Origin: a virus
Reading direction: 5' to 3' (one strand)
Length of the DNA: 64,000 nt
Virus record (IMG/VR): IMGVR_UViG_3300046170_000494
Coordinates: 32,001 to 96,000 of that record
How positions within the stretch are numbered: position 1 is the stretch's first letter; every line of letters begins with the position of its first letter. Shown one piece after another: positions 1 through 55,770 of the stretch. The position numbers and the translations under genes were made by a program. The notes under the pieces are model-generated. The model saw only the letters and a list, made by a program, of their open reading frames with translations. It was not told the origin of the DNA and searched no databases.

Positions 1-3
1 GAT

Positions 4-345
4 GTGCTTGGTTGGCAAGCTCCACACCAAGTGACTTCGCTGATGCATCAATTTGAGATTGACGGAATCAAGCACGAAAAATTACTTCACGATCTTCGGA
101 ATGACTTCAACGAAAAAGTAGTAAAAAAACACAAAGAAAGAGGCAGGATTATGAATAGTTACCAAATACTAAAGAACGGCGAGCCAATGGGCATTCAAGG
201 AACTTTTGACTACATTGTCAACGCAATACGAAACCTTGAATCAAATCTTGATCGAGCAACTGAACATTCACCTTTTACTGTTGCACTCGTAAATACTCAA
301 GCTAAAATAACAAAAAATTTAGTGGAAACAACAAATACTAAATAA
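4..345 (+). CDS. hypothetical protein (may begin before the window)
   Basis: 113-codon ORF converging on the minus-strand array; no recognisable motif; start uncertain. Confidence 0.4.
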   Translation: MLGWQAPHQVTSLMHQFEIDGIKHEKLLHDLRNDFNEKVVKKHKERGRIMNSYQILKNGEPMGIQGTFDYIVNAIRNLESNLDRATEHSPFTVALVNTQAKITKNLVETTNTK

Positions 346-469
346 TAAATAACAAATACTAAATAAAAGAATAGGTCAATCAAGATATAAAAATTATATT
401 ATAAAAGTATTTAATTAACCGATTCTATCAGGGCCCCCCTGCAGTGGGATAAGATAACTTTTTAAGAGG

Positions 470-655
470 TTACTCCCATTGGGAGTGAAATCCCCAATCA
501 ATGTCGGGCTGGTCTTCAAATTGTATGAGTGAGATCTGGTCTTCCAGCTCGCCAATTTCATTGCGTATTGCAATTCTTTGAGAGTCGGTCAAGATGCACT
601 CTTTAAGAACTTTGTGAAGTTCGAGGATTTCTTTTTGCATTTCGTTTTTGGTCAT
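470..655 (-). CDS. small early hypothetical protein
   Basis: 61 aa ORF; TTGCAA(685-690)-N17-TAAATT(662-667) ends 7 nt before the ATG. Confidence 0.75.
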   Translation of the reverse strand: MTKNEMQKEILELHKVLKECILTDSQRIAIRNEIGELEDQISLIQFEDQPDIDWGFHSQWE

Positions 656-695
656 AAAAGTAATTTAGCAAAGTAAAAAAGTAATTGCAAGCTTT

Positions 696-923
696 TTATT
701 CATCCATTAACCACTCGTCAAGTGCGTAAATGTCAAGCTCTTCATCTTTAAAGCTCGCTCCGTCAGGAGTAGCAAACATTCCTGCATTTTCAAGGCAACT
801 TGCAAGATCCTTAAAGCTCACAAATCTACGAGAGAGCTTGTAAAGGAATTCGTCATTATCTAACCAAAGAGCGACATTCCAAGTTGCCCAATTTTTCCAT
901 CCGTTGTATGTTGTATCTGTCAT
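696..923 (-). CDS. small conserved phage protein (YNGWxNWxTWNVxLW motif)
   Basis: Start moved to ATG 923, 7 nt after the TACATT -10; the N-terminal motif is one I recognise from many phage early proteins. Confidence 0.75.
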   Translation of the reverse strand: MTDTTYNGWKNWATWNVALWLDNDEFLYKLSRRFVSFKDLASCLENAGMFATPDGASFKDEELDIYALDEWLMDE

Positions 924-970
924 GATAGTAATGTAGTCAAATTTTTCACAAAAGTCAAGAAAAACTTTCA

Positions 971-1029
971 ACTATTTTATTGCACAATTCGCTCGCAGGG
1001 GGGCCCGGGTTGGATCGGGCAACTTTTTA
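971..1029. repeat. ~59 bp hairpin/G-tract repeat, copy 1
   Basis: ACTATTTTATTGCACAATTCGCTCGCAGGGGGGCCCGGGTTGGATCGGGCAACTTTTTA; 951-1029 matches 3121-3199 with 2 mismatches in 79 bp. Confidence 0.97.
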
Positions 1030-1066
1030 ACGCTAAAGGTCAGGTCACTAAAAGTGACCTATTGAC

Positions 1067-1138
1067 CTAAAGCATGAACCAAAGAAAGAATAATGGAGAG
1101 AGGATTATGCAACCTAGCTCTAGTAAAAGTAATTCCAT
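1067..1138 (-). CDS. 23 aa hydrophobic micropeptide
   Basis: MELLLLELGCIILSPLFFLWFML; starts 1 nt after the stop of 1140-1214; below the ORF-track cutoff. Confidence 0.5.
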   Translation of the reverse strand: MELLLLELGCIILSPLFFLWFML

Positions 1139-1139
1139 T

Positions 1140-1214
1140 TTAGAAAACTGAATCGGTTATTCCACGAAAAATGCCAATGACGAACGCTATTGAGAGAAGT
1201 AGTGCTAATTCCAT
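1140..1214 (-). CDS. 24 aa hydrophobic micropeptide
   Basis: MELALLLSIAFVIGIFRGITDSVF; own promoter TTGACT-N17-TACAAT ends 7 nt before the ATG. Confidence 0.6.
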   Translation of the reverse strand: MELALLLSIAFVIGIFRGITDSVF

Positions 1215-1251
1215 AATCTAATTGTAGCAAAAAAAGGCTTGTTAGTCAAGC

Positions 1252-1545
1252 CTATTCTCCGAAGATTTCACGCATTGACGGACTCACGGATTTCATGTCG
1301 TGAAGATTTTCGTCATTGTCAAAGTCATCATCTTCTTCGGCTTTGTCATCAAAAGAAGCAAGCTCTTGAACTTCATCTTGAACATCTTCTTTTTTTGCGT
1401 TAAGTAAGCCATATTCGAGAACGAGATCTTCAGCAAGCTTTTCGACCTTTAATTCTTCAATGAAGTTTTGAAGTACAGGACTTACTTCGGCATTATTATT
1501 TTCCGCAATTCTACGGATGTTTTCTAGTCTTTGTGATTCTGTCAT
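1252..1545 (-). CDS. small acidic hypothetical protein
   Basis: Start moved to ATG 1545 (MTESQRL), 8 nt after the TAATCT -10; very acidic C-terminal half. Confidence 0.7.
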   Translation of the reverse strand: MTESQRLENIRRIAENNNAEVSPVLQNFIEELKVEKLAEDLVLEYGLLNAKKEDVQDEVQELASFDDKAEEDDDFDNDENLHDMKSVSPSMREIFGE

Positions 1546-1555
1546 AGTAATTAGA

Positions 1556-1741
1556 TTAAACGAATTTTTCAGGTTTTGCAAGCAAAAACTTCATGAAAGT
1601 TTTTTGTGCTTTTTGATTGTCTTGAATCTCGTCAAGCTCAATTTGGGCATTGATGACCATTTGCATGGATTCAATGTTGCCAAGATCGGCAAGAGGTGTT
1701 TGGATTCGAATGATTTCTTTGAGTTCTTTTATTTTGTCCAT
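1556..1741 (-). CDS. small helical hypothetical protein
   Basis: 61 aa; TTGCAA-N17-TAGATT ends 7 nt before the ATG. Confidence 0.7.
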   Translation of the reverse strand: MDKIKELKEIIRIQTPLADLGNIESMQMVINAQIELDEIQDNQKAQKTFMKFLLAKPEKFV

Positions 1742-1788
1742 GGTAGTAATCTAGTTGATTTTTTAATTTATTGCAAGCTAAAAACGAT

Positions 1789-1992
1789 TTATTTTTGAAT
1801 TTCTTTAAACATTTTTTGAAGAGCTTCAACCTTTTCAATGAGTCCTTGCGTTGTCATTTCTTCAGTCAAAGTCCTTGCGGATTCTTTTTTTTCTGTGTTC
1901 ATGTAATGCAAAAACTCAATAGACCCTTTGATTTGAGCGAGCTTAATTCCGAAGTCGAGTTCTTGGAGGAGTGTTTCTTTTGTCTTAATCAT
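1789..1992 (-). CDS. small helical hypothetical protein
   Basis: 67 aa; TTGTGT-N17-TAGTTT ends 7 nt before the ATG. Confidence 0.7.
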   Translation of the reverse strand: MIKTKETLLQELDFGIKLAQIKGSIEFLHYMNTEKKESARTLTEEMTTQGLIEKVEALQKMFKEIQK

Positions 1993-2039
1993 AAGTAAAA
2001 ACTACCACAGAAACCGGCAAAACACAAGCCTAAAATTCA

Positions 2040-2098
2040 ACTATTTTATTGCACAATCCGCTCGCGGGGGGGCCCGAGTTGGATCGGGCAACTTTTTA
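2040..2098. repeat. ~59 bp hairpin/G-tract repeat, copy 2
   Basis: ACTATTTTATTGCACAATCCGCTCGCGGGGGGGCCCGAGTTGGATCGGGCAACTTTTTA. Confidence 0.97.
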
Positions 2099-2713
2099 GA
2101 CGATTTGGGTTAGTCTATTTATTTTTGCTGTGAGAGTGATTTGCCTTGCCTCATTCTGCCATTTTTGTGAACTATTGCTGAACCTTTTATTTCTAGATAG
2201 ATTCATCACAGAAAAAGCTCCTTCGTGCAGTCTATTCACTACCTTGCACAATTCTCTTGTTTCTTTGATTGGATTTGATTTGTCTTTGACAAAGTCAGAG
2301 GTTTGAAGCCAAACATTTTTCATTTTCAAGATTTCAACATTTGTTCTAATTCTGTAAAATTTTACATCAACTAAATTCTCAGGCGTTCCATCCCAAAAGC
2401 CGACAACCAAAACCAAACCTTTTTTAATTGTTTTTAATTTTCTTGCAATGTCTCCGAGTTGAATTTCTTTGCTTTTTATATTGTAGTATTTTACTTCCCA
2501 ATCTCCGATCAATTTTTTAGGAACTCCGCCTTGGCGAACAATTTCTTCAGGAAAGTCAACTTCTGCGTTGTGCTGTTCATGAGTAGGAAAGCCAAAGTAA
2601 TCAGAGATGAAGCGTTCAAACGCTTTGCCGTGCTTTCCTCTTTGTTTGTTGTGTACGCTGATATTACGAACATATTGTTTGATTTTTGGGAATGATTTTT
2701 GTGCAAGTTTCAT
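2096..2713 (-). CDS. putative PD-(D/E)XK / restriction-enzyme-like nuclease
   Basis: GKAFE ... VDF ... WEVK pattern resembles the PD-(D/E)XK core; start placed at MKLAQ behind TTGACA-N16-TAAACT. Confidence 0.5.
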   Translation of the reverse strand: MKLAQKSFPKIKQYVRNISVHNKQRGKHGKAFERFISDYFGFPTHEQHNAEVDFPEEIVRQGGVPKKLIGDWEVKYYNIKSKEIQLGDIARKLKTIKKGLVLVVGFWDGTPENLVDVKFYRIRTNVEILKMKNVWLQTSDFVKDKSNPIKETRELCKVVNRLHEGAFSVMNLSRNKRFSNSSQKWQNEARQITLTAKINRLTQIV

Positions 2714-2765
2714 AATTTTATTTTTTAAGCAATTAGATTTGAGTTTATATAAATTTTTTTTTCTG

Positions 2766-2966
2766 TCAAGCATTTCTTTCTACTGACTTCCAACCATAAG
2801 CTAAAACTTTGTCATTATAGCGAGCTTGTGAAAGCATAGCCTTAAGGTCAGAAATTTTTGCATTGATCCAATCAATTTCGCTTTGATCCATTTTACCTTG
2901 CCACATTGCAAGTTGGTTTTTTTCTATTGCGATTTCGTTTTTTATTTGTTCTGTTGTCTTAATCAT
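2766..2966 (-). CDS. small hypothetical protein
   Basis: 66 aa; TTGACT-N17-TAGATT ends 7 nt before the ATG. Confidence 0.7.
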   Translation of the reverse strand: MIKTTEQIKNEIAIEKNQLAMWQGKMDQSEIDWINAKISDLKAMLSQARYNDKVLAYGWKSVERNA

Positions 2967-3004
2967 ATTTACAATCTATTATATATTTTAGCAAAAGTCA
3001 AACT

Positions 3005-3094
3005 TTATTTTACTTTTTTTTGAGTTTTTTTAAGTTTGAAGGCGAGGAGAATTTTTTCTCTTTCTGTGAGTGGTTGTCTATCTTTTTGATTCAT
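3005..3094 (-). CDS. 29 aa basic micropeptide
   Basis: MNQKDRQPLTEREKILLAFKLKKTQKKVK; preceded by TTGACT-N17-(TGc)GATGTT. Confidence 0.5.
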   Translation of the reverse strand: MNQKDRQPLTEREKILLAFKLKKTQKKVK

Positions 3095-3140
3095 ACCTAA
3101 ACATCGCACAGAAACCCCGAAAAGTCAAGAAAAACTTTCA

Positions 3141-3199
3141 ACTATTTTATTGCACAATTCGCTCGCGGGGGGGCCCGAGTTGGATCGGGCAACTTTTTA
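3141..3199. repeat. ~59 bp hairpin/G-tract repeat, copy 3
   Basis: ACTATTTTATTGCACAATTCGCTCGCGGGGGGGCCCGAGTTGGATCGGGCAACTTTTTA. Confidence 0.97.
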
Positions 3200-3204
3200 G
3201 TTGG

Positions 3205-3513
3205 TTAAAACACAAGAAGATCTGGCTCAGCAGTATTAGAAGCGAACCAGTCGGATGGGTTAATTTCTTGACCATTTAGTACAGGCTCGAATTTGTACTG
3301 ATAGACGCCCGCGTTAGCTATGCCGTTGACGCGTTCGCGTGTGGTGGGTGTATTCCATCCCGCAAGCGACCATCTGACAAGCCCGTCAGGATCGCGTTTG
3401 ACAATTGCGTTACCATGCAGCCAAACGGTTTTGCCGTCTGTCTCGGTGTTGCCGACTTTTAAAGATGTGCCTTGCTCGAAGGCTGCTTTGATTTGTGCTG
3501 TTACTTTTCGCAT
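3205..3513 (-). CDS. conserved phage hypothetical protein (GWNTPTTRERVN motif)
   Basis: 102 aa; starts 2 nt after the stop of 3516-3719; the W-x-T-x-TT-x-x-R motif is typical of a widespread phage early family. Confidence 0.75.
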   Translation of the reverse strand: MRKVTAQIKAAFEQGTSLKVGNTETDGKTVWLHGNAIVKRDPDGLVRWSLAGWNTPTTRERVNGIANAGVYQYKFEPVLNGQEINPSDWFASNTAEPDLLVF

Positions 3514-3515
3514 AA

Positions 3516-3719
3516 TTATTTTGTTTCGTTTTTTCTTTGTTTGTGAAGGATTGCTTGCAATTGTTTTCTTGCTTCCTGTATTGCATGCAACGCATCCAAC
3601 ACAGCTTCGCCTTGTGTGAATGTTTTCATTTCTGCATTAGCAAGGAAGTTCAGATTTCCTTCGGCTTTCGAAAGAGCGAGTCCGAGTTCTAGTTCGATGA
3701 ATCTTTTTTGTTCTGTCAT
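3516..3719 (-). CDS. small hypothetical protein
   Basis: 67 aa; TTGCAA-N17-TAAAGT ends 7 nt before the ATG. Confidence 0.7.
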   Translation of the reverse strand: MTEQKRFIELELGLALSKAEGNLNFLANAEMKTFTQGEAVLDALHAIQEARKQLQAILHKQRKNETK

Positions 3720-3771
3720 AGTATTACTTTAAGAAATTTTTTGTGCAATTGCAAGCTAAAAGTGAATTATT

Positions 3772-3963
3772 TTAAGCTATCCATTCGACAAGTTCAAACT
3801 TTCTAGGCAGTCCAAACTTGGCAAGATCTTTGTTCAAGTCTTCAATCGTTGCGTGATGTTCGCATTTCATCATTACATTTGAGCTGATCAGCTCGCCTGT
3901 CTTGCGGTCAATTATATTTACTTTGGCAATGAAGCCGTTTACTTTATTATTTGTCTTAATCAT
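3772..3963 (-). CDS. small hypothetical protein
   Basis: Start moved to ATG 3963 (MIKTNN), 9 nt after the TACCTT -10. Confidence 0.7.
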   Translation of the reverse strand: MIKTNNKVNGFIAKVNIIDRKTGELISSNVMMKCEHHATIEDLNKDLAKFGLPRKFELVEWIA

Positions 3964-4024
3964 ATACCTACAAGGTAGCACATCAGGTCAGAAATTGCAA
4001 GCAAAAAGTGAAAAAAGATTCTCT

Positions 4025-4081
4025 TATTTTATTGCACAATTCAACCGCCGGGGGGCCCGAGTTGGATCGGGCAACTTTTTA
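4025..4081. repeat. ~59 bp hairpin/G-tract repeat, copy 4 (diverged left of the G tract)
   Basis: TATTTTATTGCACAATTCAACCGCCGGGGGGCCCGAGTTGGATCGGGCAACTTTTTA. Confidence 0.95.
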
Positions 4082-4156
4082 GTCAGTTAGTAGATCGCTA
4101 AACATAAAGTAGAATACGAGAGACATATTGGCGAAAAAGATAATTTCTAAGATCAT
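4079..4156 (-). CDS. 25 aa hydrophobic micropeptide
   Basis: MILEIIFFANMSLVFYFMFSDLLTD; its TAA stop lies in the end of repeat copy 4. Confidence 0.5.
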   Translation of the reverse strand: MILEIIFFANMSLVFYFMFSDLLTD

Positions 4157-4175
4157 AATTTTTTAGTTGTTTAGG

Positions 4176-4334
4176 TTACTTATTACTTGAGAGAATAGGT
4201 GAGCGAGTGCGTTGGCTTAATTCTTGAGCTATTTCTAAAGCCTTCGCATAGCTTTTCGCGTTGTCAACGAGCTTGCCGTTGTAAAAAACATTGAACCAAT
4301 TTTGGAAGTTTGGGTTTCTGAATACATTAATCAT
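4176..4334 (-). CDS. 52 aa hypothetical protein
   Basis: MINVFRNPNFQNWFNVFYNGKLVDNAKSYAKALEIAQELSQRTRSPILSSNK; promoter TTGACC-N16-TAGAAT; not in the ORF track. Confidence 0.7.
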   Translation of the reverse strand: MINVFRNPNFQNWFNVFYNGKLVDNAKSYAKALEIAQELSQRTRSPILSSNK

Positions 4335-4373
4335 AATTATTTATTCTAAAGGTTTACTAGCAAAGGTCAAGCT

Positions 4374-4580
4374 TTATTGCCAAATTGTTTCCACATCGTC
4401 GTGGATTTGAGAGAAAGAAATGTCTTGCTCTTCCGCAAGTATTCTGTCAAGGTATGGAGCTCGACCTGTTTTGCGGTCGATGTTCGCGGAACGAACTCGT
4501 GGATATTCTTGGGATGGGTTATCCCAAACTTTAACGCTGTAGTGGGTTGACCACTTTTTAATTCTTATTTTCTTAATCAT
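4374..4580 (-). CDS. small hypothetical protein
   Basis: 68 aa; TTGCAA-N17-TAAAGT ends 9 nt before the ATG. Confidence 0.7.
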   Translation of the reverse strand: MIKKIRIKKWSTHYSVKVWDNPSQEYPRVRSANIDRKTGRAPYLDRILAEEQDISFSQIHDDVETIWQ

Positions 4581-4629
4581 ATGTAATTACTTTAATCTTT
4601 TTTTTTAAAAATTGCAAGTAAAAAGCAAA

Positions 4630-4878
4630 TTATTTTACGAGTTCAAGTATTTCTTCGCAAGCTTCGACGCATCCCGATTCCCAAAACAACTCAGGATCTC
4701 GTATCTCGGAAACAACTTTTTCGGATGACAACTCAGAAGGAACTGAAACAACTTCACCAAGTCCAAGCTTGCCACCAAAGGCTTCTGCTAAGTTGTCGCA
4801 AGCACGATCGTTGCAACCTTCGTCAGCGTCGGCAAGTATTGAAAAGAGAGCTTGTATTTTTTCTTGTGATAATTTCAT
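4630..4878 (-). CDS. small acidic hypothetical protein
   Basis: Start moved to MKLSQ at 4878, behind TTGCAA-N16-TAGATT and an A/T-rich leader. Confidence 0.65.
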   Translation of the reverse strand: MKLSQEKIQALFSILADADEGCNDRACDNLAEAFGGKLGLGEVVSVPSELSSEKVVSEIRDPELFWESGCVEACEEILELVK

Positions 4879-4966
4879 AATTTTTTTTCTTATATTGTTT
4901 AACTTACTATATATACAATCTAACAAACTGAGCCGGAATTGCAAGAAAAAAGCGAAAAAAGATTCA

Positions 4967-4981
4967 ACTATTTTATTGCAC
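4967..4981. repeat. partial copy 5 of the repeat (left arm only)
   Basis: ACTATTTTATTGCAC followed by unrelated C-tracts; the upstream flank resembles that of copy 4. Confidence 0.8.
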
Positions 4982-5223
4982 TATACCCCCACCCCCGGTA
5001 TGACCCTACCCATTAAATGAATTCATTTCCTGTATTAGTTTTGTGAGAAGTGCGGGGGGTGCCTTTTTTCAATATGAAATTCATCTTATAAATTACAATA
5101 TATATGTTCAACTAAAAAAAATACGGGGCCTATATAAAAATAATCAATTTATATATAAAACAATAAGGCTTGCCTCATAAAAAAATAAAAAACGTGTACT
5201 ATTATGTTAGTATAATATATAAA

Positions 5224-5958
5224 ATGCCTCGACGCAAGAAAAAACCGGAAATCGTGAATGAGGATGATATCGAAAGAATTCGTACCTCATTAACCAAAAC
5301 AAATATAAAACTTAAACAAATAAGTTTAACGGACAAACAAAAACAATTATTAAAAATAATCTTTGACAAAGATAGTAAAATAATATTTATTAGTGGTCCC
5401 GCTGGAACAAGTAAAACATATGTTGCAATATATGGAGCCTTGCAATTATACAACATGAATAATGAGCGCGGAATTACTTATGTTCGAACAATTGCAGAGA
5501 GTGGTGAAAAAAGTCTTGGAGCGTTGCCTGGCGAAATGGCGGAAAAAATCAATCCATACATGATGCCAATGAATGAAAAACTAGATGAATTATTAATTCC
5601 TGGTCAAGCAAGTATAGTAAAAGACAAAGAAATAGTTAAAGGTATGCCTATCAACTACTTACGCGGAGCAAGTTGGCGCGACGAGATTGTAATCGCGGAT
5701 GAATCTCAAAATTTCACATTTAAAGAATTAACAACATTAATGACACGTCTTGGTCGCGGCAGTAAATTAATTATTTGCGGTGACCCTATGCAAAGTGATA
5801 TTAATGGGAAAAGTGGATTTGCAGATATGTACTCTGTGTTTAATGATGAAGATAGTCGCGAGAAAGGAATACATACTTTTCATTTCGGAGCAGAAGATAT
5901 TCAAAGAAGTGAAATACTTAAGTATGTAATAACTAAAATTCAAAATCATAAAAAATAG
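5224..5958 (+). CDS. phoH: PhoH-family ATPase
   Basis: Walker A GPAGTSKT, LGALPG, YLRGASW, DESQN, TRLGRGSKLIICGD; likely ATG at 5224. Confidence 0.95.
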   Translation: MPRRKKKPEIVNEDDIERIRTSLTKTNIKLKQISLTDKQKQLLKIIFDKDSKIIFISGPAGTSKTYVAIYGALQLYNMNNERGITYVRTIAESGEKSLGALPGEMAEKINPYMMPMNEKLDELLIPGQASIVKDKEIVKGMPINYLRGASWRDEIVIADESQNFTFKELTTLMTRLGRGSKLIICGDPMQSDINGKSGFADMYSVFNDEDSREKGIHTFHFGAEDIQRSEILKYVITKIQNHKK

Positions 5959-5971
5959 TGTATGAAGTACT

Positions 5972-6502
5972 ATGTCTATTCAGTTATTAGCATCTTCTCC
6001 AGGCCAAGTAGGAGTTGATAGTATTCGCACTGCAGTTAATACTGTATTAACTACAATCGGCGCAAGCACTACTCCATTAACAGCTAGCCCTGGTCAAACT
6101 TCAGTTGACACAATTAGAACAAAGGTTAATCAATTATTGCAAGATGCAGGTTCAACTATTACTTTATTATCTGTAAGCCCGAATCAAATTACAGTTGATC
6201 AATTAAGAACTAAAGTTAACGAAATCATTCAAGCCGCAAATGATGGAACGATAGGTGGAAGATTCAACTTTGCTCTACTTGAAAATAGCGACAAGATATT
6301 GATTGAGGTCGGCGGAGGACTACTTCTTGAGGGTGGTCAAAGTCTTGACAGATTAACCTCAGAATCTGAAGTTGACATTATCACAGAAGGAACTGAAGAT
6401 TTTATTGTTGTCGAAGGAGACGCTAGCCTTAATGCACTTTCTCTTGAGAATGGAGATGAATTATTGCTTGAAGATTTAGTTACTACATTAGATTTAGAAT
6501 AA
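5972..6502 (+). CDS. putative virion protein with two kinds of internal repeat
   Basis: Three ~29 aa SPGQxxVDxIRTKVN repeats followed by LxENGDxLLLE-like acidic repeats. Confidence 0.6.
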   Translation: MSIQLLASSPGQVGVDSIRTAVNTVLTTIGASTTPLTASPGQTSVDTIRTKVNQLLQDAGSTITLLSVSPNQITVDQLRTKVNEIIQAANDGTIGGRFNFALLENSDKILIEVGGGLLLEGGQSLDRLTSESEVDIITEGTEDFIVVEGDASLNALSLENGDELLLEDLVTTLDLE

Positions 6503-10630: not shown

Positions 10631-10901
10631 GCTCTGGAGGAGGTTTATTAGCCTCTTCAAGGGCTGACTTAAACTGTTCCTCAGAGAAACCTTCAACTGT
10701 ATTTTTAGAGCGGTTAATGGCTTGCGTTTGAAGAAGCTGAATTAACGTATTGACTGGAACGCCAGATAGTAAGTCTACCATGGTAGCGTTTTTTAAGTAA
10801 TCATTAGCAATGAATGTTACCACTTTTTCCATATCTTCATCAGAAGGAATATGCGCGTTATCATTTTTTGTTTCAGTTTGTTCTGCTGTTGCTGTTGTCA
10901 T
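10602..10901 (-). CDS. hypothetical acidic protein
   Basis: 99 aa with protein-like composition; convergent overlap with 10319-10630. Confidence 0.6.
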   Translation of the reverse strand: MTTATAEQTETKNDNAHIPSDEDMEKVVTFIANDYLKNATMVDLLSGVPVNTLIQLLQTQAINRSKNTVEGFSEEQFKSALEEANKPPPEPSEEPAGEG

Positions 10902-10907
10902 AATATA

Positions 10908-11114
10908 TTATTGTTGATTAAATTGATTATTATATAATTGTTGATTGTTATTTCTATAAATTTGTTTAGTAAATAAATTATGAAATATTACTTGTTGTTG
11001 TAGTGTTCTTATTTCTTTATTTTGCTGATTCACCAATTCATTCTGATCCCATGCAAACCACATCATAAAAAATAAAGCCAATAGTAAACTCACGATAGTT
11101 AAATGATCATTCAT
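10908..11114 (-). CDS. small membrane-anchored protein
   Basis: N-terminal hydrophobic helix plus Gln/Asn-rich tail; TACTAT -10 ends 7 nt before the ATG. Confidence 0.55.
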   Translation of the reverse strand: MNDHLTIVSLLLALFFMMWFAWDQNELVNQQNKEIRTLQQQVIFHNLFTKQIYRNNNQQLYNNQFNQQ

Positions 11115-37593: not shown

Positions 37594-37617
37594 AAGCCCC
37601 CGTAAGGGGGCTTTTTT
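37594..37617. terminator. intrinsic terminator between convergent nrdB and DUF1501 genes
   Basis: AAGCCCCC-GTAA-GGGGGCTT followed by TTTT. Confidence 0.85.
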
Positions 37618-38908
37618 ATGACAAGATATCAAGTAAAGGCTCGCCTTTATGAGCTATTGTAAAAGGTCTTCCAGAAGGAGAATATTGGTAGTCATTTAAT
37701 GGTAAGCCTAAAGTGTGTGCAATTGTAGCATTTAAGTCTTCTGGTTTAACAGGCTTGCCTTCTGTAGGAGTGCGCCCCGTTTTGTCGGTTTCTCCATAAG
37801 TCATTCCACCTTTAACTCCTCCTCCTGCTAAAAAAGCTGTAAAGCAATAAGGCCAGTGATCTCTTCCGTCTCTTCCGTTAATATTTGGAGTTCTTCCAAA
37901 TTCAGAAGTTAAAACTACCAAAGTGTCAGAAAGCATACCTCTTCGATTTAAATCGATCAACAGTCCACTTAATGCTTGATCGATATCTGTGCAATTTGCC
38001 GCTACTCTATCAAAGTTATTATCATGTGTATCCCATCCTCCTCTTGTTACTTCAACATATCTTACCCCATGTTCTACTAACCTTCTTGCTAATAAGCATC
38101 CTTTTGCAAAATTAGTTTGACCATAAAGATTACTTGTTGACTCAGGCTCTTTTGTGATGTCAAAAGCGTTTAAGTCATTACTATTCATTAATTTAATTGC
38201 GTCTTTATATAAGTCAGAATAAGCTCTTACTTTTTTCTGCGGAAATTGGGTAGAAAAATTTTCATTTAAAGCTTCTGCGATAGATATTCTACTTTGAAAA
38301 TGCTCATGATCTAAGTATGAAGCCATTTTGCTATTAGCTAATCCTGAGTTTGGATTATTAATTGGTAATGCTCCGTATTTAGATTCTAAAAAACCAGCGC
38401 CGCCTCCGCCGCCTCCTATTTTAACATTGCTGGGTATTGTTCTGTTGATTGAGCCAGAAAGTTTGGACACCCAGCTACCAAATGTAGGATGAACAATTGT
38501 GCCTCTTTTAAGATAGCTTGTATGCATTAAATAACTGGCTTGCTCGTGAGCTCCTTGGCTTGTGTTCATTGTTTTAATTATTGCTGCATGATGCATAAGC
38601 TCGGCGGTCTTTGGTAGGTTTTCCGAAAGGATTACTCCATCTGCGCTTGTTGGAATAGATTTAGTAGGGCCTTGAATATCTGGTGCGTCTGGCTTCGGCC
38701 CAAATGTATCAAGGTGAGACATGGCTCCTCCCATATTTAAATAAATTACGTGCCTTGCGGTAGGAACTCTTGCTCCTGGATTTAACGCGCTAACACTATT
38801 ATGTATATACGCTCCTGCCATTGGCATAAGACCCACCCCAAAACATGCTTTTGCAGCATGAGCTATAAATTCTCTTCTTCCTAATTCGTCTATTGTATTA
38901 AAGTTCAT
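37616..38908 (-). CDS. DUF1501 family protein with Tat-like signal
   Basis: GRREFI Tat motif; YLNMGGAMSHLDTF.PKP, HEQASYLM, CLLARRLVEHGVRYVEV..GGWDTH, SEFGRTP, GRDHWP. Confidence 0.93.
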   Translation of the reverse strand: MNFNTIDELGRREFIAHAAKACFGVGLMPMAGAYIHNSVSALNPGARVPTARHVIYLNMGGAMSHLDTFGPKPDAPDIQGPTKSIPTSADGVILSENLPKTAELMHHAAIIKTMNTSQGAHEQASYLMHTSYLKRGTIVHPTFGSWVSKLSGSINRTIPSNVKIGGGGGGAGFLESKYGALPINNPNSGLANSKMASYLDHEHFQSRISIAEALNENFSTQFPQKKVRAYSDLYKDAIKLMNSNDLNAFDITKEPESTSNLYGQTNFAKGCLLARRLVEHGVRYVEVTRGGWDTHDNNFDRVAANCTDIDQALSGLLIDLNRRGMLSDTLVVLTSEFGRTPNINGRDGRDHWPYCFTAFLAGGGVKGGMTYGETDKTGRTPTEGKPVKPEDLNATIAHTLGLPLNDYQYSPSGRPFTIAHKGEPLLDILS

Positions 38909-38961
38909 AATAGATTATTACACAATTTTGAGAAAAGTCAACAGGAAGTGTATGATATATT

Positions 38962-39348
38962 GTGCGGTTTTTATTGCTTATATTCATTATACCCAGTATT
39001 TTATGCGCTAGATTGCAAAGAGAAGATTATTTAGATAATTGTGATTGGTGCAAAAATCAAGCTAAGTCTACTCAGCCATTAGATATCGGCGAATGGAGCA
39101 TGAGGTGCCAGCAAAAACCGAAACCAATATGGTTTAATTATAGAAATATAGGCAGAGCATATGGAACTTATAAAGAAAAAACTTCTATGTGTTGGATTTA
39201 TTCTGAAAAATTAGGTTGGATATATAACACTCCTCAATATAAAGATTATATTTATACTCACAAACTTGGATGGATCTACGTAAAAGATGGCAAGGTTTAT
39301 GTCTTCAAAAAGAAAAAGTGGGATTATTTTACAAATATAAATTCATGA
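38962..39348 (+). CDS. secreted protein with CxxC and LGWIY repeats
   Basis: Signal peptide; CDWC; WIYSEKLGWIY and IYTHKLGWIY; GTG start 14 nt after GTGTA. Confidence 0.65.
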   Translation: MRFLLLIFIIPSILCARLQREDYLDNCDWCKNQAKSTQPLDIGEWSMRCQQKPKPIWFNYRNIGRAYGTYKEKTSMCWIYSEKLGWIYNTPQYKDYIYTHKLGWIYVKDGKVYVFKKKKWDYFTNINS

Positions 39349-41594
39349 GTATTAATTAATGTCCAAATTATTTCTTTGTATGCATCTTTTTCGTTTTTAA
39401 TATTATCAGTAAATATTTTCATTTCTTTAGAAGAGGGTTTTCTATTTAATATATATTTATATCCTGTTGTAATTTTATCATTCAATGACTTTTGCGACTG
39501 TATTGCTTTTATAATTTCAAAGTTTTTATTTTTTAATAATCTAGTTTCAACAAAACCATTAAGAAGATTTAATACTTGTGTTGCAGAGGCGCTTTTATTT
39601 GCGTTTTCTATCTGTTCCCTATCTGAACCACCAAACTCACGAATAAGGTGCCCTATGGGCGCAGGAGAAGGTAGTTCTGAGGCTCTTACTGAATTGCGGT
39701 CTTTTACAAAGTTTTGCTGATATTCTTTTTTCTTGTTTTCAATCTGAGATTTGAATTTATCAACACAAGATTCGCAACAAAAAGCTAAAGTCTCTCCGTT
39801 TTCATTTAGAGCTAATAATGTTGGGTCTATTGCTCTGCCAGGTTTAATTGGACAGTCTGTGTTTATTGGCTTGCTGAATTTAGACTCGCTTTGAGTTTTA
39901 GGTCTTTCAGTTTTGTTGATTTTAGCCATCAATTCCGAAAACAATTCTTCTCCTGTCATTTCTGAAAAATTTTGAAAATTTTGATATCCTTTTGTATTTT
40001 GCTCTAATTTTCTAGAATCAACATTATTTACCGTTAAATTAACTAAGGAATCCCAGATTTGTTCTCCGCTCATTCTTTCAAGCATGGGTCCTTGATAGAA
40101 ATAGGGTACTGCATTTTTGGATTGATTTTCGCTATCTGGACCAGCCACAATCCATTTTACTTCTACGGGCATAGACTGATCTTTATTGTCTTTGGGAATA
40201 ATGTCTCTCACCACAGATTGGCGCTGAAAAGTTTTTGTATTATATAATATTCTAAGAAATTCCTTAAGGTCATAATTTAATGCAACCATAACTTTTTCGA
40301 GGTGAAGTTGAAGTTTTGGATCGGTCGCTAATGTATCATCAAACATATTGTCTATGGGTTCAATTAATGCTAGTCCAAAAGCTTCTTTCCAGAGTCGGTT
40401 AACAATAACTGCTGTAAATCTTGGGTTTGAATCTGAGGCTAGCCAGTTTGCATAAATTTCTCTAGATCCTGATTGAGGGGCTTTTGTTTTAATGTCTATC
40501 TCTTCTCCAAAAATAGTTTTACCCATTAATGCTTGGTTTGGTTTTCCGTTGTCGTATTGATAATCTTTTGGAAGATTTATCTTTCCATTGCCCATACTAG
40601 CTAGTCCAGTTTGAAGAATGTCTTGTATGTCTCTCACTCCGTTTTGTAATTGCCTTGATTTTTGCGGTTCATCATTATTTTCTAATTTGCGCCTTTCATC
40701 TCTAGCCAATCTGTTTAATATGGTTAAATTTTCTGGACTTTTGGTTCTTAAGTTAGTTGAGCCACTCGTAAAAGCTGCCATTTCGTAAAATTGCTTTTGA
40801 GTCCAGCGATCAAATGGATGATCGTGGCATTGGGCGCATTCTAAGCTCGTACCTAAAAATACTCTAACTGTATTTGCCATACTGTCTAATGGCATATTTA
40901 CATCACGAGCAAAATAACTAACTCCCTCATTACCTTTAATCCATAGTGGGCCAGAAGAAGAAAGCATCTCTCTTACCCATTCATCATAAGGTTTGTTATT
41001 GGAGATGAAGTCTTTTACATAATTTTTATATGGAACGCCAGATATTCTATTGTTTAATCTATCTTTAATTCTTAATATATCTGCCCAAAAGTTAAACCAA
41101 TGGCTTACATATCCTTCGCTACCTAATAATTGATCAATTAGCTGCGATCTTTTATTTTTATCTTTACTATTTAAAAAAGAATCTACTTCTGTTAAAGATG
41201 GAGTCCTGCCAATAACCTTTAAGTATGATCTGCGTAAAAATGTAGCGTCGTCAACTTCTTTATTTGGTCGAAGATTATATCCTCTAAGTTTTGTTTCAAT
41301 CAAGCTATCAATATAATTAGCATGAGTTTTTAAATCTTTATCTGATAAGGGTTTTTTGAATTTGGGTAGAGCTTCATGGCTTGGGGGGAAATTATTTTTA
41401 ATATATGCTTGATTATCTTCTGTGAGAGAATCTATTGCTATTCTAAATAACTGTAAATCACTAGATCTTTTTATTAAAGCGTGAGTCGCATTTGCCTCAA
41501 GAATATCTCCTTTTAGATCTTTTCCGTTGTTAAAATAAAGCGTATCGCCGAAGCAATAGATTGATGATAAGAATAATAAAATTAGTTTTTTCAT
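39324..41594 (-). CDS. DUF1549/DUF1553 protein with N-terminal SHD1-like and inserted YHS-like domains
   Basis: Signal peptide; DDATFLRR, CAQCHDHPFDRWTQ, NPRFTAVIVNRLW; insert CPIKPG...AFCCESC. Confidence 0.9.
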   Translation of the reverse strand: MKKLILLFLSSIYCFGDTLYFNNGKDLKGDILEANATHALIKRSSDLQLFRIAIDSLTEDNQAYIKNNFPPSHEALPKFKKPLSDKDLKTHANYIDSLIETKLRGYNLRPNKEVDDATFLRRSYLKVIGRTPSLTEVDSFLNSKDKNKRSQLIDQLLGSEGYVSHWFNFWADILRIKDRLNNRISGVPYKNYVKDFISNNKPYDEWVREMLSSSGPLWIKGNEGVSYFARDVNMPLDSMANTVRVFLGTSLECAQCHDHPFDRWTQKQFYEMAAFTSGSTNLRTKSPENLTILNRLARDERRKLENNDEPQKSRQLQNGVRDIQDILQTGLASMGNGKINLPKDYQYDNGKPNQALMGKTIFGEEIDIKTKAPQSGSREIYANWLASDSNPRFTAVIVNRLWKEAFGLALIEPIDNMFDDTLATDPKLQLHLEKVMVALNYDLKEFLRILYNTKTFQRQSVVRDIIPKDNKDQSMPVEVKWIVAGPDSENQSKNAVPYFYQGPMLERMSGEQIWDSLVNLTVNNVDSRKLEQNTKGYQNFQNFSEMTGEELFSELMAKINKTERPKTQSESKFSKPINTDCPIKPGRAIDPTLLALNENGETLAFCCESCVDKFKSQIENKKKEYQQNFVKDRNSVRASELPSPAPIGHLIREFGGSDREQIENANKSASATQVLNLLNGFVETRLLKNKNFEIIKAIQSQKSLNDKITTGYKYILNRKPSSKEMKIFTDNIKNEKDAYKEIIWTLINTHEFIFVK

Positions 41595-41629
41595 TGTAGG
41601 ATTATAATATTTACAAACTATAATTACAC

Positions 41630-41655
41630 AAAAAAGCCACCCATTTCTGGGTGGC
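41630..41655 (-). terminator. intrinsic terminator
   Basis: Minus strand GCCACCCA-GAAA-TGGGTGGC-TTTTTT. Confidence 0.85.
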
Positions 41656-41679
41656 CGTATGGAACATTTATTAGATTTC

Positions 41680-42330
41680 TTAAAAAGAAAAGTTAAATGC
41701 TGCAGACAATAAATCTTCTCCATCCATAGATTCGGAGTCTACTCTCGCATATCCTATAGAGCCTTCAATAGAATCGGTTAGATTTTTTGAAAGAGTCGCG
41801 CCAACTTGATAGTAATCATTATTTTCAAGTCCATACCTATCTGAATTACCGACTGATCCGCCAATAGTTAAGTTTGCGAATTGCAAATCAAAACCGTGTG
41901 ACATTCCTCCTTCGAAGACGTAGTTATTATCACTGGTATCTCTTTGAATTAATAGATAAGGAGATAATACAGTATTCAAGCTCAATCTCACAACTGCATC
42001 GAGTTGACTTTGACCACTCACAATCTCTTCATGCTCAAGGCCAACATAAGCTTTGAGTAAATCTGCAAATTCAGAAGAAGCTCCTACAGAAAAAACATAA
42101 ACACTTTGTCCGTCAGAGAGTTCATCAAAAGAAGATGCCGAACCTTCAAGGGTTAGGCTTTCAATTTCTTGACTGTAACCGACTGAAGCAGAAAGACTTT
42201 CTTCTGTGAGTAAAGAGCCTTTATTGAATGTGTCGCTTCCATATCCAAGGGATACGGAGCCGGATCCAGCGTAAGCTGCGTTAATAAAAAGCGCCGTAAT
42301 GGCGGTAACAGTAATTAATAATTTTTTCAT
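41680..42330 (-). CDS. outer-membrane beta-barrel protein
   Basis: Signal peptide; alternating amphipathic strands; C-terminal AAFNFSF ending in Phe. Confidence 0.8.
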   Translation of the reverse strand: MKKLLITVTAITALFINAAYAGSGSVSLGYGSDTFNKGSLLTEESLSASVGYSQEIESLTLEGSASSFDELSDGQSVYVFSVGASSEFADLLKAYVGLEHEEIVSGQSQLDAVVRLSLNTVLSPYLLIQRDTSDNNYVFEGGMSHGFDLQFANLTIGGSVGNSDRYGLENNDYYQVGATLSKNLTDSIEGSIGYARVDSESMDGEDLLSAAFNFSF

Positions 42331-49925: not shown

Positions 49926-50317
49926 TTTAACATTAAAATTGAATTAATTGTATTTTCCGTCATCGGTGTCGGTAAAGAATTTTCTTCTATATTATAATAT
50001 CCCCATTCATCATGTTCAAAAAAATCTTTTGCATTTTCATTTGGAAAAATTAAGTCTCCTAATTCAGAATGAAAAACTGCAAATTTATCCGTTCCACCCA
50101 TATCATAAGATGATAAAAACTTTGTGTTTTCTTTATCAAGGGTAATAAGGGTTTCTTCATAAACTTCTCTAATTGCAGCTAGTTTTGGGTCTTCGTTTGA
50201 TTCTATCATTCCGCAAGGCATTGACCAGTGCTCTGCGAAGTTATGACAAATATGGCTGCGCCGACCCAAAAGCACTAAATTATTAAAAGTTAACAATACT
50301 CCTGCTGCTTTATACAT
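49922..50317 (-). CDS. NUDIX hydrolase
   Basis: GMIESNEDPKLAAIREVYEET Nudix box. Confidence 0.9.
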   Translation of the reverse strand: MYKAAGVLLTFNNLVLLGRRSHICHNFAEHWSMPCGMIESNEDPKLAAIREVYEETLITLDKENTKFLSSYDMGGTDKFAVFHSELGDLIFPNENAKDFFEHDEWGYYNIEENSLPTPMTENTINSILMLK

Positions 50318-51389
50318 CTAAGAAATCATCTAGTTTTTCTTTTTTTTGCCAATGAGGACACCCATCGTAATTCATTTTTACTATTTTATCTCCATCTTCC
50401 GGCTCAAGCTCGTGTTTGCAATCAATGAATGCACTTTTCTTAATTTTACCTTCGGAATCTTTTAATACATAATATTCCATAGGTTTGCGGTATGGACAAA
50501 TAAAGGCTTTTATTGGTTCTCCATTTTTATCCAAAACGGGTTGACCTCTTGACATTTTATAACCATCTTTTCCGCAAGCTAAAGGCCCTCCAAAAGTTCC
50601 ATCTCTTGGAAAATCTTGCTTAGCTGCAAGGTTGCTAATTGCAGCGGACTCATCAAAATTATCTAAATATTCTTGAAATTGCGTTAATTGATACTCAAAA
50701 CCTTCGAGTTCTTCGGGCGTAATTTTGTCCATGCGTAAATAACCTTTTCCATAATTACCTAAAAGATCTTTATCTAGGTCAAATCTCAAAAATAAAAACT
50801 CACTCTGAGGGTCTGTTTCTGGCATAAGGTGTTTTACCGCTAAGCAATATATTAAGTTCTGTAAATTATCTGTTACCTCTTTACCTTTAAAAACTGACTT
50901 GCTACTTTTAAAATCTCGAATAATGACCGAATTGTCTTTATATACAAAAAGTTTATCTATATATCCACGAATTGCATACCTAATACCTTGCTCTTCTTTA
51001 TGTATCTCTAAATCAAAAAATTGTTCTGACTCTGCTTTTACAGGCTTTTCTTTGCTATCTCCAAAAAAATCACATCGTAAGCCATTAACTATCATTTCAT
51101 CTATCAATTCAAGATTCTCTGCATCGTTTACAGAAAGCTCTTCGGCTTCTTTTTTAACTTGTGTCGCTACAACTTCTGTATTCCAGATAGTTCCCTCTTT
51201 TACTATTTTATTAAATTCTCTTTTATGTTTATCGCCTAATAGTTCAAATACATTATGACAAATAGTTCCCCGACTTGACCCATCATTTCCGGAATCTGGA
51301 AGCTTGAGCTTGTAATTGCACCAATAAGTCCAACTGCAGGTTTGCGCAGTTTTTATTCTGCTTGCGGATAATTTAGTTAACTCACTCAT
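50310..51389 (-). CDS. PD-(D/E)XK exonuclease (RecB/AddB/Cas4-like)
   Basis: LSASRI, GTICH, GYIDKL, DFKS, QNLIY; N- and C-terminal cysteines. Confidence 0.85.
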   Translation of the reverse strand: MSELTKLSASRIKTAQTCSWTYWCNYKLKLPDSGNDGSSRGTICHNVFELLGDKHKREFNKIVKEGTIWNTEVVATQVKKEAEELSVNDAENLELIDEMIVNGLRCDFFGDSKEKPVKAESEQFFDLEIHKEEQGIRYAIRGYIDKLFVYKDNSVIIRDFKSSKSVFKGKEVTDNLQNLIYCLAVKHLMPETDPQSEFLFLRFDLDKDLLGNYGKGYLRMDKITPEELEGFEYQLTQFQEYLDNFDESAAISNLAAKQDFPRDGTFGGPLACGKDGYKMSRGQPVLDKNGEPIKAFICPYRKPMEYYVLKDSEGKIKKSAFIDCKHELEPEDGDKIVKMNYDGCPHWQKKEKLDDFLDV

Positions 51390-54263: not shown

Positions 54264-54674
54264 TTAAAGATTAACTCCAAAGTTTTCGAATAGTTTTTCA
54301 TTTAATTTATCTTCTTCGTATATTTCAATTAACTGAATGTCGTTTAATTCGCAAAATTTAAGTTTATCTTGATCTCTTTTTAATTGATTGATGTAATTAA
54401 TCTTATTCTTTCCATGAAAGAAGGGAACATATTTTGTATGCTGTTTTCCTTGCACCTCAACTGCGACCCTTTTATTTGCATTATAAAAATCTAAGGAGAG
54501 TTTTGTGCCTGCAACCGGAAATTCTTCAAATACAATATGATTGCTCCAATATTCTTTTAGAAACTGCTTGGTCTTGTATTGTATTTTACTTCGACTTGGT
54601 CCATCCCAGTTAATTAAATAATTCTTAGCTTTTTTAACAGTTCTGGTTGCTCCAAATAAAGTCTTAAAGCGCAT
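54264..54674 (-). CDS. Vsr/DUF559-like endonuclease
   Basis: EEFPV..LDFY..AVEVQGKQH..RDQDK..GIQLIEI-like pattern. Confidence 0.75.
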   Translation of the reverse strand: MRFKTLFGATRTVKKAKNYLINWDGPSRSKIQYKTKQFLKEYWSNHIVFEEFPVAGTKLSLDFYNANKRVAVEVQGKQHTKYVPFFHGKNKINYINQLKRDQDKLKFCELNDIQLIEIYEEDKLNEKLFENFGVNL

Positions 54675-55770
54675 TAGTCAAATTTTTGAAATCTTGATAC
54701 AGGAAATCCGAAAGCTTTTCGTTTTCTTCTAGATAATCAATTAATCTCTGTTCTCCTTGGAATTTTTCATTTATTTCTAGCTTTTTATCAGAAAGCTCTT
54801 TAATTAAATCTTCCGAAACAGATATCCATGCACCTTTCTTTTCTATTAAATTAAAAAGGTATAACATGTCAAGAATTTCTCTAGCTCTCCATACTGACTT
54901 TCCGTCTTTTTGCCCGTATTTAATTGGATACCTTACTGAAGATCCAGTTTTTTCATTTACACTTTTCCTGAATTTAATCTTACAGTAATGCCCTATAGGC
55001 TCACCTTTATCATCTAATTTTGTTGCGGTTGGGTTTTTGAAAATTAAATCAGAAGTATAGCGCTCTTCAAATTCAAGAATAAAGTTAGCATAATGCTTGA
55101 TTGCATTACCTCCTGCTTGCTTAACTTTTGGACCTCCTCTAGATGCGTAGGGATTGGTTGCGACTTCAACTCTAACTTGGCTAGTTAAAATCATTGTATG
55201 GCCCATTTTTGTTATAGGTAAAACCATTTTCTTTAAAAATACAGAAGTTATTAATGCTCCTCCTGCAACTTGTTCCGATTCTGCGAAAGGCTTGTCAATA
55301 TCATTTACTCTGCATAATGCATCGACACTATCGATTATGAACATATACTTTTTATTGTGTTCATTGTGAAAAACTAATTCTCTTATTAATTCAAAGACTT
55401 TTTCAAACACGTTGCAATCAAAAACGAAAAATTTTTCAGGGTTAGTGTCTATACCTGATCTTTCAATCATTTCGGGACTAAATCTACCCTCGCTTTTGAT
55501 ATAAATTATCATACCTTCTTTTTTAAACATTTTTTGGAAGTTTTTAGCGAAAGCCATGGCGCAGCTAGTTTTACCTCCTTCGTTGATTCCTGTAAATCTA
55601 TGAGCTCCGCCAGGCAGGCCTCCACCTAGGGCTATGTCGAGATTTAAGCTTCCACTTGGAATTTTGTACTCTTCGCTTTCGTGAAAATTGTAATGATATT
55701 TTTGATTATCTTTATCTGATAAAAATTTAGATATTTGGTCTGTAGTTTTAATTTCTTTAGTTTTACTCAT
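54664..55770 (-). CDS. recA: RecA/UvsX recombinase
   Basis: IPSGSLNLDIALGGG, GGKTS, IIDSVDAL, QVR, GGNAIKHYA. Confidence 0.92.
   Translation of the reverse strand: MSKTKEIKTTDQISKFLSDKDNQKYHYNFHESEEYKIPSGSLNLDIALGGGLPGGAHRFTGINEGGKTSCAMAFAKNFQKMFKKEGMIIYIKSEGRFSPEMIERSGIDTNPEKFFVFDCNVFEKVFELIRELVFHNEHNKKYMFIIDSVDALCRVNDIDKPFAESEQVAGGALITSVFLKKMVLPITKMGHTMILTSQVRVEVATNPYASRGGPKVKQAGGNAIKHYANFILEFEERYTSDLIFKNPTATKLDDKGEPIGHYCKIKFRKSVNEKTGSSVRYPIKYGQKDGKSVWRAREILDMLYLFNLIEKKGAWISVSEDLIKELSDKKLEINEKFQGEQRLIDYLEENEKLSDFLYQDFKNLTNAL

Follow-up and report, generated by a model that had tools for sequence, protein, structure and literature searches.

A repeated early-promoter and G/C-hairpin cassette, resembling promoter-early stem-loops, in the early gene array of an uncultured phage

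Positions 32,001-96,000 of the IMG/VR record IMGVR_UViG_3300046170_000494, which comes from an uncultured phage, were analysed as one stretch of 64,000 nt (hereafter the window; G+C 35%), near the left end of which an intergenic element of about 60 bp is repeated within a leftward array of small early genes. The repeat is the distal part of a cassette of 105-125 nt that, read on the gene strand, runs from the upstream stop codon through a hairpin formed by runs of G and C (the G/C run), a TTGCAC-type box and an A/T-rich stretch to a -35/-10 promoter and an ATG about 6 nt further on. This anatomy is conserved across a family of phages, and differences between relatives in gene blocks, single genes and alleles end inside the repeats. 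The reading that we regard as probable is a cassette like the promoter-early stem-loops (PeSLs) of T4-like phages, i.e. a terminator or insulator combined with an early promoter, which is also a substrate for recombination. In such a cassette the G/C hairpin would most likely attenuate or insulate transcription between neighbouring blocks, while the remainder would act as a strong early promoter of the host sigma70 type with an upstream-promoter (UP)-like A/T-rich stretch. Because the copies are near-identical, they would also serve homologous recombination, through which gene blocks could be added, deleted, swapped or duplicated, a role that may have been selected for or may be a by-product.

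PeSLs are known in T4-like phages both as punctuation of gene expression and as a vehicle for the shuffling of accessory genes. What is new here is the same architecture, including the G-tract/C-tract hairpin, in an unrelated lineage of uncultured phages, which supports the view that promoter-hairpin cassettes are a general, convergent way to keep fast-changing genes for host takeover expressed. The metagenome variants described below are natural examples of blocks and single genes that come and go at the repeats, and the conserved box with its G/C run provides a sequence handle for finding early-gene arrays in this phage group.

Repeat copies and anatomy of the cassette

Four full copies (971-1030, 2040-2099, 3141-3200 and 4023-4082) and one partial copy (4967-4993) are present, with start-to-start spacings of 1069, 1101, 882 and 944 bp; over a 62-nt core the four full copies agree pairwise at 54-61 of 62 positions. 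The half of the element with the stem-loop and T-run has four matches at up to one mismatch in the 64 kb and none in 100 shuffles, and the left half has five matches, with at most 4 in 100 shuffles. No further copy of either half was found elsewhere in the 64 kb, so that all copies are confined to 1-5 kb of the window, in the leftward early array only; G/C runs of the cassette type are likewise confined to the early region.

The first-pass annotation of this DNA had described four near-identical copies with these spacings, each with a G run, an interrupted palindrome ATTG-CA-CAAT, a 6-bp stem, a T-run on the plus strand and, in copy 1 only, an A>G change, and each placed between the last stop codon of one block and the next promoter. 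All of this was recovered, the genes being on the minus strand. Two of its descriptions needed extending. The copy at 4967, taken for a left arm, is indeed there, but it is a whole degenerate cassette in which C5-A-C5 replaces the G/C run. Similarly, the unit of about 59 bp is real, but it continues into the promoter and the start codon, which had been missed. A sixth, degenerate G/C box, beyond those originally listed, lies at 421-470, where two convergent arrays meet.

The anatomy was derived from an alignment of the 125 nt before every start codon, and the parts of the five cassettes are as follows.

924-1030, minus strand: cassette 1, consisting of copy 1 (971-1030) and the -35/-10 promoter (958-930), with the ATG at 923
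1993-2099, minus strand: cassette 2, consisting of copy 2 (2040-2099) and the promoter of the gene starting at 1992
3095-3201, minus strand: cassette 3, consisting of copy 3 and a promoter, with the ATG at 3094-3092
Cassette 3, distal parts: right-arm stem-loop 3173-3190, T-run 3193-3197, G/C run 3164-3177
Cassette 3, middle parts: TTGCACAAT box 3150-3158, A/T-rich stretch 3129-3149
Cassette 3, promoter: -35 at 3123-3128, -10 at 3100-3105
3964-4082, minus strand: cassette 4, consisting of copy 4 (4023-4082) and the promoter of the gene starting at 3963
4878-4999, minus strand: cassette 5, at the head of the array, with the TTGCAC-type box and A/T-rich stretch kept and C5-A-C5 in place of the G/C run

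Of the four full copies, three (2-4) have a stop codon at, or within a few nucleotides of, the outer edge of the element; that of the gene 2713-2096 falls inside the edge of the element of cassette 2. The variant form of cassette 5 also heads the array in relatives. A sigma70-like promoter is found in all five window cassettes and in the family consensus (TTGACT-type -35, 17-bp spacer, TAnnnT-type -10). The -35 hexamers of the window are TTGACT, TTGTGT or TTGCAA, the 17-bp spacer often has TG immediately ahead of the TAnnnT-type -10, and the ATG follows 5-8 nt on. Upstream of the -35, an A/T-rich stretch of 21 nt with A-tracts (about -38 to -57) leads to the TTGCAC-type box, centred near -61.5, and the G/C stem-loop has a fixed position far upstream, at about -70 to -90. 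Most genes of the array have a sigma70-like promoter of their own, ending about 6 nt (5-8 nt) before the ATG, but the long upstream element is limited to the first gene of each block and the other promoters are without it.

No Shine-Dalgarno sequence is visible in the regions before the start codons of the array, and the ATG coincides with the predicted start of the transcript, a spacing from which a leaderless first gene is probable in every block. A Met-Ile-Lys start is common to the cassette-headed genes starting at 1992 and 3963, to the other array genes starting at 2966 and 4580 and to genes of the relatives, although the proteins that share it are otherwise unrelated. It seems, then, that the conserved unit reaches some 9-14 nt into the coding sequence, perhaps to serve leaderless initiation.

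Conservation in related contigs

Scanning for the exact pattern retrieved three near-identical viral contigs, and a looser pattern (a TTGCAC-type box, 6-14 nt, then a G/C run) retrieved arrays with up to 8 cassettes in at least six further uncultured viral contigs of 15-184 kb. The element, whose absence from relatives had been named beforehand as a reason to discard it, is thus found family-wide in other phage contigs. Its regular spacing, by comparison, is not a property of the element: successive copies in relatives are 302-2234 bp apart, and the rhythm of about 1 kb in the window therefore reflects gene content and not a constraint.

A conservation profile was built from 39 distinct copies in about eight contigs, aligned on the box. 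The conserved part takes in the start of the gene that follows (often ATGATTAAG), the -10, the spacer, the -35, the A/T-rich stretch, the box and the G/C run; past the G/C run, on the distal side, conservation falls sharply. Runs of G3-8/C3-7 are present in every family copy. When cassettes are searched for by their promoter side alone, nearly all of those with a matching A/T-rich stretch carry the box, and almost all carry the G/C run, at a fixed distance. In the relative G001, a rightward early array located just left of the window position contains two cassettes (L004 3941 and 4948) that are flipped together with their genes.

Gene-order changes at the repeats

The close relatives, thirteen contigs taken from viral and metagenome collections, differ in gene order, with at least seven arrangements among them. 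The segments of the window that are involved are the following.

4630-4936, minus strand: a unit of 307 bp with one promoter and one open reading frame (ORF), found in the window, L189 and L185 and missing from at least six relatives
2096-2713, minus strand: a swapped gene, replaced in five relatives by an allele that is 68% identical at the protein level
1031-2099, unstranded: the block between copies 1 and 2, with four genes, missing in the metagenome contig L190
2100-4082, unstranded: two blocks, between copies 2 and 4, missing in the contig L186

The breakpoints of the 307-bp unit are within the repeated -35/upstream promoter sequence. At the swapped gene, the flanks are more than 96% identical and the switch between alleles falls exactly at the right edge of the element and at the ATG of the gene. 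The single element that L190 retains is a chimera, with the promoter side of copy 1 and the distal side of copy 2 joined by a crossover in a shared 22 nt, and in L186 the remaining element is a chimera of copies 2 and 4. Further changes include an extra ORF in L007 and L187, a paralogue of the gene at 4334 that is inserted between a promoter and its gene, the lack of the first block in L191, and a rearranged order in L185 with one gene present twice. L026 carries two copies of a unit of about 300 bp that consists of an ORF between two cassettes (92.8% identity over 362 aligned nt), and in more distant relatives the same gene families are found in different blocks.

The suggestion of the first-pass annotation that the repeats are recombination sites for block shuffling, comparable to the PeSLs of T4, is supported by these breakpoints in the element and promoter repeats and by an anatomy that matches published PeSLs; the gain and loss of blocks with breakpoints in the repeat, which it had proposed to look for in relatives, is seen in the chimeras of L190 and L186. 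Genes that may take part in such exchange are encoded in the window itself, namely a PD-(D/E)XK nuclease and a RecA/Rad51-like protein (50310-51389 and 54664-55770), which could form a phage recombination system acting on short repeats.

Comparison with known systems

PeSLs have been described as mobile regulatory cassettes in the plastic regions of T4-like genomes (RB49/phi1, T4/PST and KVP40/nt-1), where they occur as repeated units among small non-essential genes and bring together an early promoter of the sigma70 type, AT-rich DNA upstream of it, a stem-loop, frequently of polyG-polyC, and, at the 3' end, a Shine-Dalgarno sequence and start codon (Arbiol et al. 2010, PMC2839356; Comeau et al. 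2014, PMC4122927). In RB49 the stem-loop of a PeSL lowered reporter expression about as much as rrnB T1 did, the promoter was very strong, and neighbouring PeSL units recombined to give insertions, deletions and mini-circles (PMC2839356; PMC4122927). The present cassette is similar in that it is an intergenic repeat stretching from the upstream stop codon through a G-tract/C-tract stem-loop, an AT-rich stretch and a -35/N17/-10 promoter to the next start codon, in that it is concentrated among small genes mostly of unassigned family, and in that the insertions, deletions, replacements and duplications of relatives end in cassettes.

There are also differences. The phage is not a T4-like myovirus; its cassette lacks a Shine-Dalgarno sequence, the one sequence-level feature of PeSLs that is missing from it, and places the ATG at the predicted transcript start; the stem-loop keeps a fixed position (about -70 to -90), whereas those of PeSLs are at various positions; and there is an additional conserved TTGCAC-type box, mirrored in many copies, which creates an inverted repeat of 66 nt whose T-runs are confined to one strand. 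Neither the mirrored half-sites nor the strand bias of the T-runs follows from the PeSL model. Terminator activity and mini-circles have been shown for RB49. The present cassette is accordingly filed here as a new variant that would work like a PeSL, and is kept apart from the T4 family of elements.

The promoter half may also resemble UP-element and other upstream-activated promoters (such as rrnB P1 and the early promoters of T4 and T5), in which an A/T-rich stretch lies upstream of a near-consensus -35 and which, in phages, belong to the early region. Such an early region is transcribed by the host polymerase. Unlike in those promoters, conservation in the present cassette continues for a further 50 nt upstream, through the G/C run.

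The G/C hairpin and the ends of transcription units

Whether the G/C hairpin ends transcription can be approached from where such boxes occur and from what accompanies them. Two features of the window are relevant in addition to the cassettes.

421-470, unstranded: a degenerate G/C box without promoter, where the rightward genes end at 345 and the leftward array ends at 470
1221-1253 (match 1253-1235), minus strand: a canonical sense terminator, with a 7-bp stem and T7, overlapping the -35 of the promoter of the next mini-gene

A full box is found at the convergent junction of L026, in the same place as 421-470 of the window. In L016 (about 10860-10985) a transfer RNA (tRNA) gene is directly followed by a TTGCAC-type box and a G6C7 run, after which comes a rightward cassette with its box in the opposite orientation. 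The boxes are located at block boundaries, at the promoter-less convergent junction and at the tRNA site, with an orientation that follows the genes, which suggests that the G/C box marks the ends of transcription units. As in intrinsic terminators, a GC-rich hairpin lies between transcription units, and on the plus strand five consecutive T begin no more than 2 nt behind the hairpin of the right arm. The terminator at 1221-1253, a textbook example in the same array that differs from the cassette hairpin, in turn resembles a subclass of PeSLs whose stem-loop overlaps the -35 box. A scan of the sense strand for a hairpin with a T-run gave no match at any cassette, the sole match in the array being that at 1253-1235; on the sense strand the hairpin is followed by a C run or A-rich sequence.

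Several observations weigh against a PeSL-like terminator, promoter and recombination cassette. Concerning termination, (i) neither strand has a T-run directly behind the hairpin of the G/C run, so that this hairpin is not a textbook intrinsic terminator; and (ii) a flipped cassette in a relative has a separate canonical terminator immediately upstream, as the window array has its own at 1221-1253, which suggests that the G/C hairpin may not terminate efficiently by itself. With respect to recombination, (iii) the block deletions of L190 and L186 are each known from one metagenome contig, as are the gene orders of L191 and L185; (iv) the junction of L186 contains an exact shared stretch of about 33 nt, which is long enough for an assembly chimera to be possible; and (v) no second example of the L190 junction turned up when the viral contig collection was searched for it. 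Finally, (vi) a plain terminator-plus-promoter model leaves the conserved TTGCAC-type box and the mirrored right arm unexplained.

The mirrored G/C box, in which two half-sites of the TTGnnCnATnC type surround a GnCn core and T-runs occur on one strand only, might be more than a passive repeat and have an active part, either as a trigger of cassette exchange (a cruciform or hairpin whose cleavage feeds the RecA-like and PD-(D/E)XK proteins) or as a one-way terminator that shields convergent leaderless arrays. Either role is speculative, and we would give it a small chance.

The plus-strand stem-loop and the long inverted repeat

The first-pass annotation had drawn attention to a stem-loop GCCCGA-GTTGGA-TCGGGC. 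It is present in the window copies, but it is part of a long inverted repeat and shows no covariation. Specifically, the whole element folds as a long imperfect hairpin centred on the G/C run and not as a small stem (-21.8 kcal/mol on the plus strand and -18.7 kcal/mol on the minus strand). In this lineage it forms a 66-nt imperfect inverted repeat whose right arm repeats the promoter-side arm in inverted and degenerate form, with a mirrored box and a mirrored outer hexamer. Across 32 family copies 54% of the stem cells are paired, which equals the shuffle mean, and there is no excess of double changes. In the 19 copies with two arms, 71% of the cells pair, versus 22-46% when one arm is slid; since 71% is again the shuffle mean, the symmetry of the arms is kept by conservation of sequence and not by compensatory change. 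The symmetry is not complete, as each of the two flanking five-base linkers has its T-rich sequence on one and the same strand, and in this the element also departs from a bidirectional terminator, which would have A upstream and T downstream.

The strand bias could mean that the main job of the element is antisense termination, a one-way stop on the plus strand that would keep read-through, whether its source is the convergent rightward array or spurious promoters, from running into the leaderless early genes. In a pattern scan all four full window copies were terminator-like (hairpin followed by T-run) on the plus strand only. In the family copies of 'type I' the T-run behind the right arm is nearly invariant, with flanks that are T-rich on the same strand; the elements of the rightward array are flipped with their genes, so that the T-run is antisense there too; and the promoter-less copies at the convergent junction and after the tRNA gene face the incoming gene. 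Nevertheless, the signal is missing in most of the family: it is seen in the window copies, most copies of the closest relatives and two of the three L043 copies, it is weak in three others, and about twenty further copies are without it. In about 40% of copies the right arm itself is gone, the upstream ORF reaching the G/C run. Even in two near-identical relatives the stem is broken, by a changed right arm in copy 1 of L004 and by a C·C mismatch in copy 4 of L007, and no conserved plus-strand promoter was found that would need stopping five times. Antisense termination is thus an unlikely main function.

An equally unlikely explanation is that the element is a binding site on DNA, in which two mirrored 11-bp half-sites of the type TTGnnCnATnC flank the G/C run and recruit a phage or host regulator that boosts or shuts off the early promoters. 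This would fit the conservation by sequence of both arms, the mirroring of the invariant positions on them, the fixed distance from the -35 of the promoter-side box, which near -61.5 occupies a classic activator position, and the joint occurrence of box and G/C run at places that have no promoter. However, a distance of about 38 bp between the half-sites would be unusual for a dimer, the right one is dispensable in many copies, and about half of the relatives have the ATTG-CA-CAAT palindrome broken (G for A); no candidate for the binding protein was identified, and shared ancestry of the copies could account for the conservation without any such protein.

Three further readings are very improbable and largely refuted, namely a structured RNA that acts as a small RNA or as a processing site, a mobile element like a miniature inverted-repeat transposable element (MITE), and a periodic site that serves the entry, replication or packaging of the DNA: copy 3 does fold better than shuffles (z-scores -2.7 and -4.4) and the window copies are about 1 kb apart, but the elements of relatives fold no better than shuffles, the RNAalifold consensus keeps only two G:C pairs, both in the G/C run, no plus-strand promoter precedes the element, its ends are direct repeats with neither terminal inverted repeats nor target duplications, and the spacing in relatives gives no support to the periodic entry, origin or terminus sites that had been proposed. 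The search of Rfam suggested at the same time, made over 1-6000, returned no curated covariance-model match to the element; its only hit, to a microRNA (E = 0.2), lies in another part of the region and is due to chance.

Several named elements were also considered and rejected. For a MITE or a host repeat, a scan of bacterial genomes yielded 120 single matches and no multi-copy loci. On inspection, a sigma54 promoter (the TTGCAC box with downstream GC) has a spacing two bases too long, a missing GG doublet and an antisense orientation, and a CRP-like site has a single TGTG half with no second half-site at N6. A G-quadruplex is contradicted by the single G run and by a G/C order that flips between copies. 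An N4-type hairpin promoter (5-bp stem, 3-nt loop) is at odds with the complete sigma70-type promoter downstream, and no giant polymerase gene lies within the window, whose largest ORF (1335 aa) encodes a tail protein.

The phage and its early gene array

The window encodes a DNA polymerase of the DnaE (Pol III alpha) type, a DnaB-like helicase and a ribonucleotide reductase in addition to the RecA-like protein and the PD-(D/E)XK nuclease, as well as PhoH, a ClpB/ClpC-like ATPase, a terminase and tail genes. Protein searches with the terminase gave distant matches only, the best being to Clostridioides and Bacillus phages at about 24% identity, and a DNA search against cultured phage records gave no match; the DnaE-type polymerase and the distant terminase indicate that the phage is not T4-like. 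A CheckV completeness estimate for one relative puts the genome size of the lineage at roughly 140 kb.

The array itself was delimited with the ORF list, the upstream regions, a promoter scan and Pfam.

470-4877, minus strand: the leftward early array, with about 16 small genes

Pfam assigns no family to eight of the ten array proteins that were scanned, and the only matches are to Kyano_Gp96 and DUF7249.

Some minor features of the array may be of interest. In the divergent region between its head and phoH there is a 14-bp perfect palindrome (5011-5024), preceded by a conserved C-rich stretch and kept in the distant relatives L026, L021, L043 and L191, which may be an operator for divergent promoters. 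On the plus strand, pairing over about 70 nt could occur between the C5-A-C5 tract (4986-4998) and a G-rich tract with T6 behind it (5050-5068); this would enclose the palindrome and make 4986-5068 a possible plus-strand terminator, or a structured leader, where the array begins. An arrangement that looks like an operator is found at 1037-1068, within the sole long stretch of the array without coding sequence (1031-1145): it consists of four GGTCA/TGACC words, of which two are direct and two inverted, and includes a palindrome with a 7-bp stem. Two blocks are closed, just before a cassette, by hydrophobic mini-ORFs of 24-25 residues (4079-4156 and 1144-1218), and a comparable ORF of 22-24 aa (family F3) lies ahead of cassettes in L026, L021 and L058.

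Further into the window, 37616-41723 encodes a DUF1549/DUF1553 protein (Pfam E = 1.9e-45) together with a DUF1501 protein (E = 1.7e-110), a pair that we take to be typical of Planctomycetes and Verrucomicrobia and that hints at the host group.

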